Shown here one piece after another: positions 2,146 to 21,488 of a DNA stretch of 61,766 bases; the first letter of the stretch is position 1; each line of letters begins with the position of its first letter. Both the position numbers and the translations under genes were made by a program. Source of the DNA: Lysinibacillus sp. GTDB taxonomy: Bacteria > Bacillota > Bacilli > Bacillales_A > Planococcaceae. The notes below the pieces were generated by a model that did no database searches, was not told where the DNA came from, and saw nothing but the letters and a program-made list of their open reading frames with translations. The stretch lies in NCBI GenBank assembly GCA_045605545.1, contig JAZUQF010000186.1, forward strand, positions 1 to 61,766, read 5' to 3'.

Positions 2146-2797
2146 CACCATAGTGCTGTTCCTTTTGCTTCAGAAGCTTTATGAGAAGGTGAACAATCCG
2201 TTGTTCCTGCCGTTATTGACCACTACATTCATTACGGTTGTTATATTGATAGCTTTTCAGATTCCCTACGATACATATATGGAAGGAGGGGAGTGGATTC
2301 AAAAAATGCTCGGCCCTGCGGTAGTGGCGCTGGCTTATCCGCTGTACAACCAGCGTGAACTGATCTTTAAATATAAGTATTCAATCTTGTCCAGTTTGGT
2401 TGTCGCCATGCTATCGGGGCTTATTAGCGTCTACGCATTTTTAAAGCTTTTCCAGGCAAGTGATTCCTTTATTTTGACCTCCCTTGCGAAATCGTTGACG
2501 ACTCCGGTGGCGATGCAGGTAAGCGAAACGGTAGGAGGGATTCCGCCATTGACGGCCGTGCTGGTCATGGTGGCCGGGTTTACAGGAGCGATTTTCGGGC
2601 CGCTGCTGTATAAAATAGCCCGCATCGATACAGCCATCAGCCGCGGGGTGTCGATGGGAAGTGCAAGTCATGGTGTCGGCGTTTCGAAGCTGAAGGAATA
2701 CGGGGAGGAGGCTCTGTCGATCGGTTCGCTTTCCATGGGGTTGAGCGCAGTGCTCGGGGCATTCATATGTCCTATTTTCGCCTTTCTGATTATATAA
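2120..2797 (+). CDS. LrgB/CidB family membrane protein
   Basis: LGPAVVALAYPLY, KSLTTPVAM, SHGVG motifs; overlaps upstream partner. Confidence 0.9.
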   Translation: MLAVIIIVSTIVLFLLLQKLYEKVNNPLFLPLLTTTFITVVILIAFQIPYDTYMEGGEWIQKMLGPAVVALAYPLYNQRELIFKYKYSILSSLVVAMLSGLISVYAFLKLFQASDSFILTSLAKSLTTPVAMQVSETVGGIPPLTAVLVMVAGFTGAIFGPLLYKIARIDTAISRGVSMGSASHGVGVSKLKEYGEEALSIGSLSMGLSAVLGAFICPIFAFLII

Positions 2798-2824
2798 AAA
2801 AACTTGAGGGAAATCCCTCAAGTT

Positions 2825-4294
2825 TTAATAGATTGCACGCCGTTCTTTAATGACACGGATATTTGCCAATGTAGCGTCTTCCGGTCCCTGTACAGGAAGC
2901 CCGGCTTCGATATTCATCTGAATATACTTGATATTGTCCTCGGTAATGACCTCACCGGGGATGAAGATTGGAATCCCAGGCGGATAGACCATGATGAATT
3001 CCGCAGAAATCCGGTCATGCGCCTCGGCGAGCGGAATCACTTCCGTCTCGGCATAGAATGCATCACGCGGGGACATGGCAAGGGCCGGAATCTCCGGGAC
3101 TTTTACGTTCGGGACGGTTACGCTTGCTTCCGAATCAAAAGCCTGTGACATGCGTGTCAATGCATTTATAAGAAGATTCATTTCCTTTTTCTTATCGCCC
3201 AATGTCACCAGGCACAAAATATTGTAAAGGTCGGATAGTTCGACTTCGATGTTGGCATTATGGCGCAGCCACTCCTCAGCATCGTGTCCGGTGATGCCCA
3301 AGTCTTTGACACTAATCAATAGTTTGCAAGGATCCATATCAAATGTTGCGGATGAATGCAGTTTTTCCCGTCCGACACATGACAAGTGGGGAATCGCATT
3401 GATGCGCTTGCGTGTATCCTTGGCCAGGCGAATCGCTTCATCTATCAAATCATGGCCATGAATGGCCAGCTGGCGCCGTGCACAGTCAAGGGAGGCCAGC
3501 AATGGATAGGAAGTAGATGTCGTCGTCAGCATGGAGAAGAACGCTTGGGCACGTTTGGCTGATACAAGGCCTTCCCGGACATTCAAGATAGATGTCCCTG
3601 TCATCGACCCCCCCAGTTTATGTACGCTTGTAGCGGCCATATCTGCGCCTGCCTGCATGGCGGAAAGCGGCAGTTCATCATGGAATTTGATGTGCACACC
3701 ATGAGCCTCGTCAACGATGACTGGGATGTCGTGCGAATGGACTATTTCTACAATTCTTTTCAAGTCAGCCGCAAAGCCGAAGTAAGTAGGGTTAATTACT
3801 AGAACTGCTTTTGCATCAGGATAGTTTTGCAGGGCCTTCTCCACTGATTCCGGGGAGATTCCGTGCGAGATGCCCAATTCCGGGTCTACCTCCGGATGGA
3901 TGAAGATTGGAATGGCGCCCGCAAATACAATAGCAGACATAATCGATTTATGAACATTCCGTGGTACTAGAATTTTATCACCTGGACCAACGACTGTCAG
4001 AATCATTGTCTGGATTGCACCACTAGTACCTTGAACGGAAAAGAATGTATGATCAGCACCAAAAGCCTCGGCAGCCAGGCTTTGCGCCTCTTTGATCGCT
4101 GCTTTTGGAGAGTGTAAATCATCCAGTGGGGCAATATTAATTAAATCAATTGATAAAACGTTGTCGCCGACGAATTCTCGAAACGCTGGGTCCATACCTG
4201 AGCCCTTTTTATGACCGGGAATATGGAACTGAACAGGGTGTCTGTTTCGATGCTTAAGAAGAACGTCGAACAAAGGAGTCTCTAACTGTGACAA
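2825..4294 (-). CDS. speA: Arginine decarboxylase (PLP-dependent Orn/Lys/Arg decarboxylase)
   Basis: FHIPGHKKG, VDEAHG, SVHK, YPPGIP motifs; TTG start 4294 after GAGGTG; syntenic position. Confidence 0.88.
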   Translation of the reverse strand: MSQLETPLFDVLLKHRNRHPVQFHIPGHKKGSGMDPAFREFVGDNVLSIDLINIAPLDDLHSPKAAIKEAQSLAAEAFGADHTFFSVQGTSGAIQTMILTVVGPGDKILVPRNVHKSIMSAIVFAGAIPIFIHPEVDPELGISHGISPESVEKALQNYPDAKAVLVINPTYFGFAADLKRIVEIVHSHDIPVIVDEAHGVHIKFHDELPLSAMQAGADMAATSVHKLGGSMTGTSILNVREGLVSAKRAQAFFSMLTTTSTSYPLLASLDCARRQLAIHGHDLIDEAIRLAKDTRKRINAIPHLSCVGREKLHSSATFDMDPCKLLISVKDLGITGHDAEEWLRHNANIEVELSDLYNILCLVTLGDKKKEMNLLINALTRMSQAFDSEASVTVPNVKVPEIPALAMSPRDAFYAETEVIPLAEAHDRISAEFIMVYPPGIPIFIPGEVITEDNIKYIQMNIEAGLPVQGPEDATLANIRVIKERRAIY

Positions 4295-19000: not shown

Positions 19001-19459
19001 TTCGGTGATATTTCCGTCCTTGATACGCCTACGTTCCTCTACGGCTTGAAGCTGGGCGAGGAAATCGAAGTGGAAATCGAGAAAGGAAAGACGCTGATCA
19101 TCAAGCTCGTATCAATCGGCGAGCCGCAGCATGATGGTACGCGCGTCATGTATTTCGAGCTGAATGGCCAATCACGAGAGCTGGTCATCCAGGACATGAC
19201 AGTGGAAGTGGATGGCAGCCTTTCATTGAAAGCCGACCCTTCCAATCCGAATCAGATTGGGGCGACAATGCCTGGTACGGTGCTGAAGGTAGTGGTATCA
19301 AAAGGAAGTCATGTCAAGCGGGGGGACCATCTGTTGATTACGGAAGCGATGAAGATGGAAACAACCGTACAGGCTCCAAAAGATGGTGTCATCAAGGAAA
19401 TATATGCTGCAGCAGGAGATGCCATCTCCACAGGAGACCTATTGATTGAAATGATATAA
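16025..19459 (+). CDS. pyc: Pyruvate carboxylase
   Basis: ANRGEIA, GGGGRG, RDAHQSL, WGGATFD, EAMKM biotinylation motif. Confidence 0.99.
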   Translation: MKEIKKVLVANRGEIAIRIFRACTELHLETVAIYSREDSGAFHRYKADEAYLVGQGKKPIDAYLDIEGILAIAKDAKVDAIHPGYGFLSENVEFARRCEEEGIIFIGPTSRHLDMFGDKVKAREQAVLAGIPVIPGTDGPVGSLEEVEAFGDKYGYPIMIKAALGGGGRGMRMVQSKEELASAYERAKSEAKAAFGSDDVYVEKCIIKPKHIEVQIIGDTAGNIVHLYERDCSIQRRHQKVVEIAPSNSIDKDLRNRICDAAVKLMKNVEYVNAGTVEFLVAGEEFYFIEVNPRIQVEHTITEMITGVDIVHAQIKVAGGHTLHSAEINIPSQDKIPLFGFAIQSRVTTEDPKNDFMPDTGKLMVYRSSGGFGVRLDAGNGFQGAVVTPYYDSLLVKISTWGMTFNEAAAKMDRNLREFRIRGVKTNIPFLENVVIHEKFLTGEFDTSFIDTTPELFEFPERKDRGTKLLSYIGNVTLNGFPGVEKRTKPIFVQPEKPKLDLSAAPSAGTKQILDERGADGLVEWIKAQEDVLLTDTTFRDAHQSLLATRVRSNDMFEIADATSRMMHNYFSLEMWGGATFDVAYRFLKEDPWARLEKLRQQVPNVLFQMLLRGANAVGYTNYPDNLIREFIKESAASGIDVFRIFDSLNWIKGMEVAIDEARNAGKIAEAAICYTGDILDDARAKYTVDYYKEMARELENAGAHILAIKDMAGLLKPEAAYRLISELKDSTDLPIHLHTHDTSGNGIYLYARAIDAGVDIIDTALGSMAGLTSQPSANSLYYAMKGSRRNVRADIDSLEKLSYYWEDVRKYYVDFESGMNAPHSEIYVHEMPGGQYSNLQQQAKAVGLGDRWDEVKAMYSRVNMMFGDIVKVTPSSKVVGDMALFMVQNDLDEENIYERGQSIDFPESVIEFFQGYLGQPHGGFPEKLQQVVLKGREAITVRPGEQLEPVDFEQLAKELEEKLECEPTKQDVLAYALYPKVFEEYSKTSRQFGDISVLDTPTFLYGLKLGEEIEVEIEKGKTLIIKLVSIGEPQHDGTRVMYFELNGQSRELVIQDMTVEVDGSLSLKADPSNPNQIGATMPGTVLKVVVSKGSHVKRGDHLLITEAMKMETTVQAPKDGVIKEIYAAAGDAISTGDLLIEMI

Positions 19460-19471
19460 AAAAAGAGTGCG

Positions 19472-19480
19472 AGAATTTTC
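19472..19480 (+). repeat. Left 9-bp target-site duplication AGAATTTTC
   Basis: Identical to 20432-20440 and directly abuts left TIR. Confidence 0.88.
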
Positions 19481-19507
19481 TAACGGGTTCGGTTGATGGG
19501 GAGAAAA
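19481..19507 (+). repeat. Left terminal inverted repeat TAACGGGTTCGGTTGATGGGGAGAAAA
   Basis: 26/27 match to reverse complement of 20405-20431. Confidence 0.92.
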
Positions 19508-19581
19508 ACGTAAAAAGCAATGTAATTAACAACTCAATTAGCATGTATTTTAACAGTAAAATAACAATGCAAATGGCAAGC

Positions 19582-19611
19582 AAAAACGCTCAGATTAAAC
19601 TGAGCGTTTTT
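19582..19611. terminator. Bidirectional terminator inside cassette left end
   Basis: AAAAACGCTCAG-ATTAAA-CTGAGCGTTTTT perfect stem. Confidence 0.85.
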
Positions 19612-19726
19612 CAGTATTATTTTTTGCTTATTTAACTAAAGCATCCGTTAGCCATACATGAAACCAAACTTCCCCACAGAGAATGAAAGCTAATTACATT
19701 CTTCCATAGTAGTAGTTAAAGATTAT

Positions 19727-20155
19727 TTATTCTGTTTGTCCTGCCTTCATAAAAACTTGTTTTAAACTTTCTGCATTCCCTTTGGCTAATGTTCCAAAGC
19801 CTTCATTCTGATAATCACTAATAATCGTTGCAGTATCGTTTCCTTGGTTAAACCAAATTTGATGATTCACAAGTCTTTCAGGCATGTTTTTATCAAAAGT
19901 ATAGAAAAATATCGCTTCTACATCAGGCTCTCTAGACATTTTTGGTTCTGCATTCGGTTGCCAATTCACTTTTTGGAAAATATTCTCTACTAAACTTAAC
20001 TCTTCTTCAAGTTGAATGTGATATTCGATGTCCTTTTCTTCAAACAATGAAATAACATCTATTCTAGTTAATTCTCCTTTGCTTTGTTCAGAACAGGCAA
20101 CTAAGAACATTGATGCAAAAAGAAAAACAATAGTTATTATTTTCTTCAAACTCAT
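19727..20155 (-). CDS. Hypothetical lipoprotein (cassette cargo)
   Basis: RBS GGAGGTG; signal peptide with lipobox LVAC; AT-rich codons unlike neighbours. Confidence 0.85.
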   Translation of the reverse strand: MSLKKIITIVFLFASMFLVACSEQSKGELTRIDVISLFEEKDIEYHIQLEEELSLVENIFQKVNWQPNAEPKMSREPDVEAIFFYTFDKNMPERLVNHQIWFNQGNDTATIISDYQNEGFGTLAKGNAESLKQVFMKAGQTE

Positions 20156-20345
20156 ACACCTCCATAAAATTAGACGTTATTCTCAATATAATAGTTACAT
20201 TTTTTGTTAAAACAACCTACCAATTCGTAACAGTTTTATCAAAGGTTTTAACAACACCGCATAAATTTATGTGGTATCGCCAAATTGTATGTGAATTTGT
20301 TTGTTAATTGATATGTTAAAAGCCTTAGATTGTTGATATAACAAC

Positions 20346-20384
20346 AAAAAAGAGGACGCTAATTCATGTGTGAATAGTGTCCCC
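20346..20384 (-). terminator. Terminator inside cassette right end, facing ctaA read-through
   Basis: Minus strand GGGACACTATTCA-CACA-TGAATTAGCGTCCT then CTTTTTT (one mismatch, one bulge). Confidence 0.65.
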
Positions 20385-20404
20385 AATAAAGGTGTTATTT
20401 AATG

Positions 20405-20431
20405 TTTTCTCCCCAGCAACCGAACCCGTTA
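20405..20431 (-). repeat. Right terminal inverted repeat
   Basis: Reverse complement TAACGGGTTCGGTTGCTGGGGAGAAAA. Confidence 0.92.
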
Positions 20432-20440
20432 AGAATTTTC
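20432..20440 (+). repeat. Right 9-bp target-site duplication AGAATTTTC
   Basis: Identical to 19472-19480. Confidence 0.88.
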
Positions 20441-20450
20441 TCGCACTCTT

Positions 20451-21362
20451 TTAATTTTGCCTACTGCGGTAGACAAGTAGAATCATATAGCAGAACAAAC
20501 CGAATAATAGAGTGATGAACAGCGAATGCAGCAGTGACACAACCAGATTCAATTTCGTCAGTACGACGAGCATGCCGGCCAGTACCTGGAGGATTACAAT
20601 CGTAAAGGCGATGATCCATCCCCAATAGATGACGCGCTGCTCTTTATAGTTTTTCACGACATGCCATGTAATATAGGCAATCCAGATAACAATCAGCAAT
20701 ACGGCCAAGCGGTGCCCCATCTGTACCCATTCATACATGTTGTAAGGAAGGGCGAATGGTTCGTCGTTCCGGCAGAAAGGCCAGTCCGGACAGACGAGGC
20801 TTGCATCCGTATGCCGCACAAGCGCACCTGTGTAGACGACAAGGTAGGAATAGAGCGTCACACCGATGATATGCCATTTCAGCTTTTTACCGATAAACAC
20901 TTGATCGGCATCGAACTTCCGGTCAACTTCAAATACAATCAGGGCCAGCAGTAAGACTGCGGTAAAGGAAATGAGCGAGATTCCGAAATGCAGGGCCAAA
21001 ATGAAATCCCCTTGTCCCCACAATACCTGCGCCGCCCCGATCAATGCCTGCAGGACGAGGAAGAAAACGGCGTTGAACCCCAGGAACTTCACTTCTTTGA
21101 TATGTCCCATTGCACGCCATGTCCAGAACACTAAAGCAACGATGAAAAGGGATACTACTCCCGTCACGAGGCGGTGGGAAAATTCAATGAGCACTTCCGT
21201 TGTGATTTCTTTCGGGATAAGAGAACCGTTACAATCCGGCCAGTTGCGCCCGCAGCCAAGGCCGCTGTCGGTTTTTGTAACAAGCGCCCCGCCTATGAGG
21301 ATGAACAGCATGCCGATTGTTGCCGCTACGGCAAGCCATTTTAAATATTTATTATGTTGCAT
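20451..21362 (-). CDS. ctaA: Heme A synthase
   Basis: SGLGCGRNWPDCNG, EFSHR, HFG, CPDWPFC, HR motifs; ATG 21362 after AGGTGG. Confidence 0.95.
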   Translation of the reverse strand: MQHNKYLKWLAVAATIGMLFILIGGALVTKTDSGLGCGRNWPDCNGSLIPKEITTEVLIEFSHRLVTGVVSLFIVALVFWTWRAMGHIKEVKFLGFNAVFFLVLQALIGAAQVLWGQGDFILALHFGISLISFTAVLLLALIVFEVDRKFDADQVFIGKKLKWHIIGVTLYSYLVVYTGALVRHTDASLVCPDWPFCRNDEPFALPYNMYEWVQMGHRLAVLLIVIWIAYITWHVVKNYKEQRVIYWGWIIAFTIVILQVLAGMLVVLTKLNLVVSLLHSLFITLLFGLFCYMILLVYRSRQN

Positions 21363-21488
21363 GATAATGAGCCACCTACTTCTAATTTCAACATCGCTCC
21401 TAAAAAGCGTCTCTAGTTTAAAATGATAGCGAATAAACCAATAAAAGACAATGTTAAACAAGAATACCTTTTTAGGAGAGACTTCCAT

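Follow-up and report, generated by a model that had tools for sequence, protein, structure and literature searches.

How did a single lipoprotein gene come to lie, in a stretch poor in GC, between two convergent genes of a Lysinibacillus sp., and what carried it there? The question arises in a 61,766-nucleotide stretch (GCA_045605545.1, contig JAZUQF010000186.1), referred to here as the window, in which a first-pass annotation had pointed to a transposase-less cargo cassette between the genes that we take, from their translations, to be pyc and ctaA. The insert is a transposase-less cargo transposon with ends like those of a 3-kb Bacillales insertion sequence (IS), whose transposase likely moved it in trans into the loop of the pyc/ctaA hairpin.

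An insert in the loop of a terminator hairpin

Two 27-bp terminal inverted repeats (TIRs) bound the element: 19481-19507, on the forward strand, and 20405-20431, read as its reverse complement, agree at 26/27 positions. The 9-mer AGAATTTTC lies outside both, at 19472-19480 and again at 20432-20440, in keeping with the 9-bp rule of the family described below. The element between these copies is 951 bp long. Sequence comparison thus bore out the repeats and the 9-bp target duplication as they had first been read. A 10-bp duplication was considered and rejected, because the tenth base is the T that opens the TIR in all copies. We call L the end that lies downstream of the transposase gene in autonomous copies and R the end that lies upstream; here the L-end TIR is the left one, which matches the corresponding end of the autonomous copy L107 at 27/27 positions, and the R-end TIR (reverse strand) belongs to a stretch whose first 35 nt are identical to L107. 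Further in, the conserved subterminal part of the L end (19508-19625, forward strand) matches other copies in the genome and in relatives, and that of the R end (20221-20404, reverse strand) is homologous to the first ~211 nt of the autonomous copies L107, L116 and L126, the homology stopping just short of the predicted promoter of their 86-aa ORF. A second conserved palindrome, at 20254-20280 around CATAAATTTATG, about 150-185 nt into the R end, lies upstream of that small ORF's predicted promoter in the autonomous copies and is a candidate operator.

The interior is low in GC, as first noted; the 25-30% estimated at the time was slightly low, the measured value being 0.32 for the element (0.29-0.35 in the five 200-nt bins that cover it) against about 0.42-0.59 in the pyc bins and 0.478 for the whole genome. 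The sole convincing ORF is, as had been claimed, a lipoprotein gene: it occupies 19727-20155 on the reverse strand, is preceded by GGAGG at 20159-20163 and encodes 142 aa with an LVAC motif that we take to be a lipobox. The protein has no family match in Pfam or NCBIfam, scores 0.95 against YhfM-like clusters in the Atlas feature comparison, and has 44 homologues, on which PF26353 is present and of which those bearing names are all from Bacillales. The cargo is a YhfM-like and otherwise ordinary lipoprotein. The gene is apparently mosaic, its signal-peptide region being 83% identical to L249 and its mature part 91% identical to L237, with a switch near the lipobox (20054-20164 compared with both loci). 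Nothing in the window stretch reached the Rfam gathering score, and a sigma-70 promoter scan of the element returned 2 sites against 4.6 expected, i.e., below chance.

The insert sits in the loop of the terminator hairpin of the convergent pyc and ctaA-like genes. The left arm of the hairpin, an A-tract plus stem, lies at 19458-19471 and the right arm at 20441-20453 (both given on the forward strand); pyc ends at 19459, and the ctaA-like ORF (20451-21488, reverse strand) ends in the right arm. Removal of the element with one 9-mer restores an A-tract/stem/T-tract hairpin whose reconstructed stem is 14 bp. Alignment of pyc-ctaA junctions, which had been proposed as a check, uncovered empty alleles: a junction could be read at 17 of 19 loci from relatives, and the element was present at none of them; in L003 the hairpin is intact, with a single AGAATTTTC; and in X2 and X3, two of the four small-share sequencing runs used, contigs with near-identical flanks join across the element position. 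In run X5 the pyc/ctaA hairpin is present with a different loop. Run X1 contains two short contigs (depth 2) with the lipoprotein gene, at 5 differences in 423 nt, and an R end, at 3 differences in 298 nt, that continues into a flank other than pyc/ctaA; because the X1 gene and R end have a different flank, the lipoprotein cargo also occupies another site. The empty alleles, the autonomous copies with the same ends and the occurrence of cargo plus end elsewhere in X1 uphold the original description of a non-autonomous, TIR-bounded cargo element of the DDE type.

The ends of the element carry predicted terminators of their own, a bidirectional intrinsic one (hairpin plus T-tract) at 19582-19611 in the L end and an inward-facing one at 20346-20385 (reverse strand, -13.7 kcal/mol) in the R end. 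Throughout the family, a hairpin with a T-tract faces inward in 72 of 88 L ends and outward in 71 of 88, against 3 and 17, respectively, in shuffled sequences; an inward predicted terminator is found in 64 of 70 R ends (6 in shuffles), with stems that vary. The L-end terminator would stop both pyc read-through and the cargo transcript, and its R-end counterpart would stop read-through from ctaA. Judging from these predictions, there is a good chance that the inward-facing terminators at both ends stand in for the split host terminator, which would make the insertion near-silent, with no gene hit.

A family of hairpin-targeting elements and its probable transposase

A search for further TIR copies, another of the suggested checks, found them in the host genome, in relatives and in 103 of the 370 host-family genomes searched, the reversed-pattern control matching none. 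The TIR pattern yielded 108 loci in GTDB genomes (full flanks for 80), with hosts that include Sporosarcina, Psychrobacillus, Solibacillus, Ureibacillus, Neobacillus, Bacillus and others. The host genome itself holds two further complete copies with other cargo, on contigs C224 and C239, plus lone or incomplete ends on C6, C336, C479, C387, C114 and C225. The TIR was not found in viral contigs; seven plasmid records match parts of the element, and an L-end match on a large plasmid of A. pseudofirmus OF4 (L278, NC_013792.1) hints at a possible vehicle between hosts.

Beyond the TIR the two ends differ, and pairing is of L with R. Among 49 unique facing end pairs, 25 have a perfect 9-bp duplication and 35 have one with no more than a single mismatch; no other length from 4 to 14 gives more than 1 perfect or 3 near-perfect cases. 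Because the family shows this 9-bp rule, a chance origin of TIR and duplication is excluded. The 14 pairs that lack a near-perfect duplication include several nested or mispaired ends, and the 12 of 49 with fewer than 7/9 matches were left out of the cargo and empty-site analyses. The remaining 37 elements span 673-3,713 bp at a GC content of 0.27-0.42, and 49 of their 60 ORFs run from R to L, the other 11 in the opposite direction. Cargo is unrelated between copies and presumably consists mostly of small membrane proteins or lipoproteins, together with Nudix-, GNAT- and VOC-like enzymes.

The landing sites follow a pattern. With six elements around distant transposases added, 43 empty sites were reconstructed, and in these the 9-mer is centered on a hairpin loop: an uninterrupted stem of at least 8 bp is present in 23 of 43 (an undercount, since no bulges were tolerated) versus 3% of controls, the median folding energy is -17.5 versus -7.5 kcal/mol, and an A-tract lies on the left in 38 and a T-tract on the right in 30. 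About four of the 43 targets lack a central hairpin. Ends nested inside other copies were seen at L021, L081, L061 and C224:4806, where elements apparently insert in or beside each other's terminators. Other ISs (IS1182, IS3-like, IS200-like and IS1595) lie within or beside the elements at L033, L104, L066, L088 and L126, some of them at end hairpins; the IS1182 gene in L033 and the genes in L066 and L088, which we take to be IS3-type and IS200-type, respectively, were judged to be secondary insertions.

An autonomous copy with the same ends, which the first-pass annotation had suggested looking for, turned up in other genomes in four instances, L116, L107, L084/85 and L126. L116, from Psychrobacillus sp. 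L3, is 3,439 bp long with a duplication of 8/9; its R end is immediately followed by an 86-aa and a 651-aa ORF and then by cargo. The same ORF pair, 83-86% identical to that of L116, stands behind the R end in L107, L084/85 and the frameshifted L126. At least six shorter copies (L066, L136, L088, L118, L123 and L178) contain 3' remnants of the transposase gene, of which deletion intermediates retain only the 3' tip. Matches to the gene, most of them fragments, were present in 23 of 151 family genomes, and neither tblastn nor a profile search detected a transposase of this family in the host genome (95.7% complete, 515 contigs). In view of this, the still mobilizable insertion that the first-pass annotation suggested is only a possibility. 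From these sequence relationships, it was very probably the 651-aa transposase that moved the pyc/ctaA element, as a non-autonomous derivative. No family match was found for the 86-aa ORF, and a regulatory DNA-binding role for it is a guess.

The 651-aa protein has homologues in 383 matches (766 representatives at 50% identity), which NCBI names ‘insertion element protein', ‘IS1 family transposase' or ‘transposase-like', and no sequence relative in the PDB. Its AlphaFold model (pLDDT 84.7) is matched best by the ISCth4 transposase (Z 10.4, rmsd 4.2, 239 aligned), followed by Hermes (Z 9.1) and, among retroviral integrases, that of HIV (Z 9.0), and Foldseek returned Tn5 at E 8.5e-4; the protein is thus predicted to have the RNase H fold of DDE transposases and integrases. 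Residues D281 and D428 are conserved in all 26 divergent homologues compared. At position 568, D stands in 23 of these 26 and N in 49 of 58 members of the cognate Bacillales clade; in that clade D564, one turn away, does not vary. Distant members behave similarly: when their ends were sought without assuming any end sequence, four of six full-length transposases at 45-57% identity proved to lie between inverted repeats that start with TAA, with a perfect 9-bp duplication and in hairpins. Because the elements of these distant homologues also sit in hairpins, the target rule travels with the protein family. The TIRs of sister subfamilies differ, each tracking its own transposase. Among the larger relatives is a 7.7-kb autonomous member (L197:1823-9539, G083) with about nine passenger ORFs and a nested gene, presumably IS30-like; further out lies a broad clade of mostly unnamed 570-640-aa homologues (P0230-P0313) at 22-30% identity with a DDD triad, one of them from Thermovirgaceae.

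Very probably, a transposase supplied by another copy would bind both TIRs and join them 9 bp apart, across the center of the symmetric A-tract/stem/T-tract target, with predicted catalysis by D281, D428 and either D564 or N568; the target hairpin could be read as a cruciform or as symmetric A-tracts. IS1 and IS256 transpose through a circle. Whether the present elements do so is a guess, by analogy, to which we give even chances; an exact-pattern search for abutted ends, the mark of a circle, returned none in 370 genomes.

The placement of this transposase among known families is less direct, since no family-level model was passed by the L116 protein or its homologues. The zinc finger/HTH model NF050000 is above its cut-off in several homologues and below it in L116, and hhalign against a true IS1595 enzyme (90.9% over 99 columns) aligned only the zinc finger and HTH. 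The IS1595 model NF033547 was unmatched by L116 (E<=0.1) and by 26 homologues (E<=0.01), with a control protein scoring 204 bits, and none of the IS1595 Pfam models matched in 58 members; the IS1 model NF033558 reached 20-45 bits in the N-terminal part only, against a cut-off of 100. A zinc finger and HTH ahead of an RNase H catalytic domain are shared with IS1595 and IS1, as are duplications of 8-9 bp and the carriage of passengers, and the 9 bp seen here fits the 7-9-bp duplications that PMC12561309 gives for IS1016 elements. As to differences, the present enzyme is far longer, ~650 aa compared with 217 aa for ISApl4 and 336 aa for the IS1595 enzyme in L126, with an extra N-terminal Cys-rich region and large insertions that set it apart from both families. 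Transposase region 556-584 lacks a YREK motif. Passenger-carrying IS1595 forms (tIS) were reportedly described by Siguier et al. in 2009.

Two other origins for the whole element deserve mention. The first-pass annotation had looked toward the IS4 family and IS231, and the general design is indeed shared with the IS231-derived cassettes (MIC231) of the Bacillus cereus group, also transposase-less, TIR-bounded passengers moved in trans in Bacillales, according to the portions of PMC2266710 and PMC6542083 available; moreover, an IS1182 transposase lies within L033, and a passenger of that enzyme could be imagined. Either is extremely improbable. IS4 members have the YREK motif, and IS231 has CAT ends and 10-12-bp repeats (PMC2266710, Table 1), none of which is present; the ends here begin TAACGG, unlike any IS4 subgroup in that table, and the zinc finger/HTH is of the IS1/IS1595 type, so that the IS4/IS231 lead finds no support. 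The transposase family, the ends and the duplication length thus all differ from those of MIC231/IS231. The IS1182 gene is intact in 1 of 37 elements, at the L-end terminator position and in the opposite direction, and looks secondary, whereas copies with identical ends encode the 651-aa protein directly behind the R end. For MIC231/IS231, we know of no cassette sites such as those described below. That these sites and the TIRs share a beginning raises the other possibility, namely, that a tyrosine recombinase inserted the entire element: the TIR and the type-1 site consensus have the same first 8 nt, TAACGGGT. Site-specific recombination would not yield duplications of unrelated 9-mers, however, and these are what the family has; the TIRs of sister subfamilies, in addition, differ and track their own transposases. 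We regard insertion by a recombinase as highly improbable.

Palindromic cassette sites and a possible source of the cargo

Genes within the elements are often bracketed by two types of palindrome, and the same palindromic sites divide long same-strand gene arrays (L041-L045); in G012 dozens of them are spread across about 37 kb. The small-gene arrays at L041-L044 (G012:C18, about 11.7-49 kb and 101-107 kb) resemble a chromosomal super-integron, and a terminator-like hairpin is often found between a type-1 and a type-2 site that form a pair some 58 nt apart. Scoring matrices trained on the array loci detected a site in 32 of 88 L ends, of type 1 in 28 of the 32 and at 169-176 nt from the end in 23, and in 19 of 69 R ends, of type 2 in 17 of the 19 and for the most part near 290-306 nt; in these counts related ends are not independent of one another, and the fixed position may reflect one ancestral capture. 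The opposite strand gave 5 (L) and 1 (R), and shuffles gave none. The remaining 56 L ends and 50 R ends held no site above the threshold.

The pyc/ctaA element has a type-1 site at 19631-19653 (reverse strand, score 26.9), 170 nt from the L end. It is followed by a ~60-nt remnant of a second cassette at 19651-19712 (reverse strand), 73% identical over 101 nt to an L249 segment that ends at a type-2 site, and by the left half of a cassette site at 19713-19722 (reverse strand), which ends the lipoprotein cassette. A 91%-identical lipoprotein gene occurs in a TIR-free context in L237 and L239, and its identity to the window stops exactly at this half-site, just past the stop codon, where those loci run into a degenerate full site. 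Upstream of the gene the pyc/ctaA element has no recognizable site (score -8.6). Across the loci of lipoprotein homologues, a same-strand site lies within 250 nt upstream in 2 of 31 and downstream in 4 of 31, one of the latter being the pyc/ctaA locus, and of four distant autonomous elements a scoring site was found in the dfrG one only. Further cassette sites exist in the host genome outside the window, at C76:26368, C107:666 and 1024, C134:45466 and C316:5522.

A candidate enzyme for these sites is a cassette integrase, a 281-aa Xer-like tyrosine recombinase encoded at L045:7672-8517 and also at L207-L223 and L225, and transcribed against the array. At integrase loci with differing outer flanks, a type-2 site lies upstream in 16 of 18 and a type-1 site downstream in 15 of 18, while such bounding is seen in 0 of 12 loci from its 61-65% sister clade. 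The integrase also occurs as cargo: a 2,763-bp element with perfect TIRs and duplication (L221:199-2961, G130:C11) holds an intact copy among three cargo genes. It matched 52 of 201 genomes and was not found in the host genome or in any of the five same-genus genomes sampled; the seven tyrosine-recombinase matches in the host genome are all distant from it (24-29% where aligned).

Co-oriented genes parted by palindromic sites, with breakpoints at the sites, are an integron-like trait, and a transposon shell around co-oriented, site-bounded cassettes, sometimes with an integrase transcribed against them, recalls class 1 integrons and Tn402. Unlike those of class 1 integrons, the sites here are simple palindromes of ~20-30 bp, far shorter than attC hairpins, and the integrase is Xer-like, lacks an IntI-type match and is itself bounded by sites. 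The L045 protein is below both integron-integrase cut-offs (93 versus 265 bits) and passed NF040815 (225 versus 220). In Firmicutes genomes no complete integron was found, according to the available text of PMC4889954.

From the arrangement of sites in these sequences, we lean toward cassette loading by a tyrosine recombinase at the short palindromic sites, with the element acting as a small mobile integron whose predicted entry point would be the resident site about 170 nt into the L end. The alternative is passive capture, in which pieces of cassette arrays were acquired by deletion, nesting or homologous exchange and the 170-nt site is an inherited fossil. Most ends lack a scoring site, as does the region upstream of the gene in the pyc/ctaA copy; the integrase was not found in the host genome or in the five same-genus genomes; 11 of 60 ORFs run against the usual direction; and nested ends do occur (L021, L081, C224). 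All of this would suit passive capture. Yet cargo varies in almost all copies, and still the right half of the site keeps its fixed distance and the type-2/type-1 polarity is maintained; breakpoints coincide with the half-site; and L221 holds an intact integrase inside its TIRs. On balance passive capture appears rather unlikely, and cassette loading by the recombinase is the reading that we carry forward.

The dfrG element as a clinical sister

Among the distant elements is L196, which carries the gene for DfrG and has 100% identity to the 3,276-bp dfrG element found on plasmids of S. aureus, Enterococcus, Listeria and Lactococcus; of 164 records that match the latter, 90 do so over 80% or more of its length. 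The transposase of L196 shares 55% identity with that of L116 over 653 aa, and the small ORF of a dfrG-group element (L166) is 59% identical over 78 aa. The two kinds of element share a small ORF, a 650-aa transposase and a passenger, TAA-starting TIRs and cassette sites around the passenger. The dfrG element differs in that it has its own TIR sequence, as a separate subfamily, is autonomous, and has dfrG running against the transposase gene.

In the accessible parts of the literature, the dfrG element is described as a putative mobile element with two hypothetical ORFs, inverted repeats and direct repeats (PMC8544886), is named ISSsu9 and associated with IS1595 (PMC8343405), and is reported in Tn6198 and S. 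pyogenes (PMC4432960); it is also listed as ORFU1, ORFU2 and dfrG (AB205645), and in SCCmec IVo. The same portions of these three articles make no mention of terminator targeting, non-autonomous derivatives or cassette sites, and those of PMC12540322 and PMC8407400 add nothing on the mechanism of the dfrG element. The initial suggestion that the family may be undescribed must therefore be narrowed: it is only partly true, since a sister with a 55%-identical transposase is published and the superfamily is thus already catalogued via the dfrG element. The kind of element (MIC, tIS) is likewise known. In the published literature covered, mainly open-access main texts and not ISfinder, we found no description of the target rule, the wild family with its non-autonomous members or the cassette sites.

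The dfrG element, too, often sits in hairpins. A perfect 9-bp duplication is present at 8 of the 10 loci checked; of the other two, one has 10 bp and one has mismatched flanks. L196 and five plasmid sites fold as a central hairpin, three sites do not and one is not interpretable; the three without a central hairpin are among eight plasmid dfrG sites whose duplication is intact. Cassette sites bound both dfrG and dfrK, and the DNA similarity between the two starts and ends at such sites (L196:2517-5792; L268-L277).

A broader proposal, which in our estimate could equally well prove right or wrong, is that these elements constitute a mobile integron of the Bacillales, terminator-targeting and self-insulating, which takes up cassettes from chromosomal arrays via an Xer-like integrase that is itself a cassette, its transposase representing an IS family not yet modeled. 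Environmental Bacillales would then be the origin from which dfrG, and probably dfrK as well, reached staphylococci, enterococci and Listeria by the same route. Starting from the pyc/ctaA locus, one arrives at the wild family of the dfrG element, at the rule by which it selects targets, at residues that are likely catalytic and at a likely way in which genes are loaded. If loading is true, Gram-positive bacteria have a functional analogue of integrons, already the source of one clinical resistance gene (dfrG, the trimethoprim-resistance gene of staphylococci and enterococci carried by the sister element), and the arrays form a reservoir that can be searched for resistance surveillance. In addition, an enzyme that inserts into the loops of terminators and reinstates termination is a candidate tool for safe-harbor insertion.

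Two plasmid observations touch on the passengers. On pKKS825, the 1.4 kb surrounding dfrK contain four cassette sites, including two that separate this gene from tet(L). In many E. faecalis plasmids, positions 2517-3276 are all that is left of the dfrG element, the break falling about 10 nt from the downstream site.
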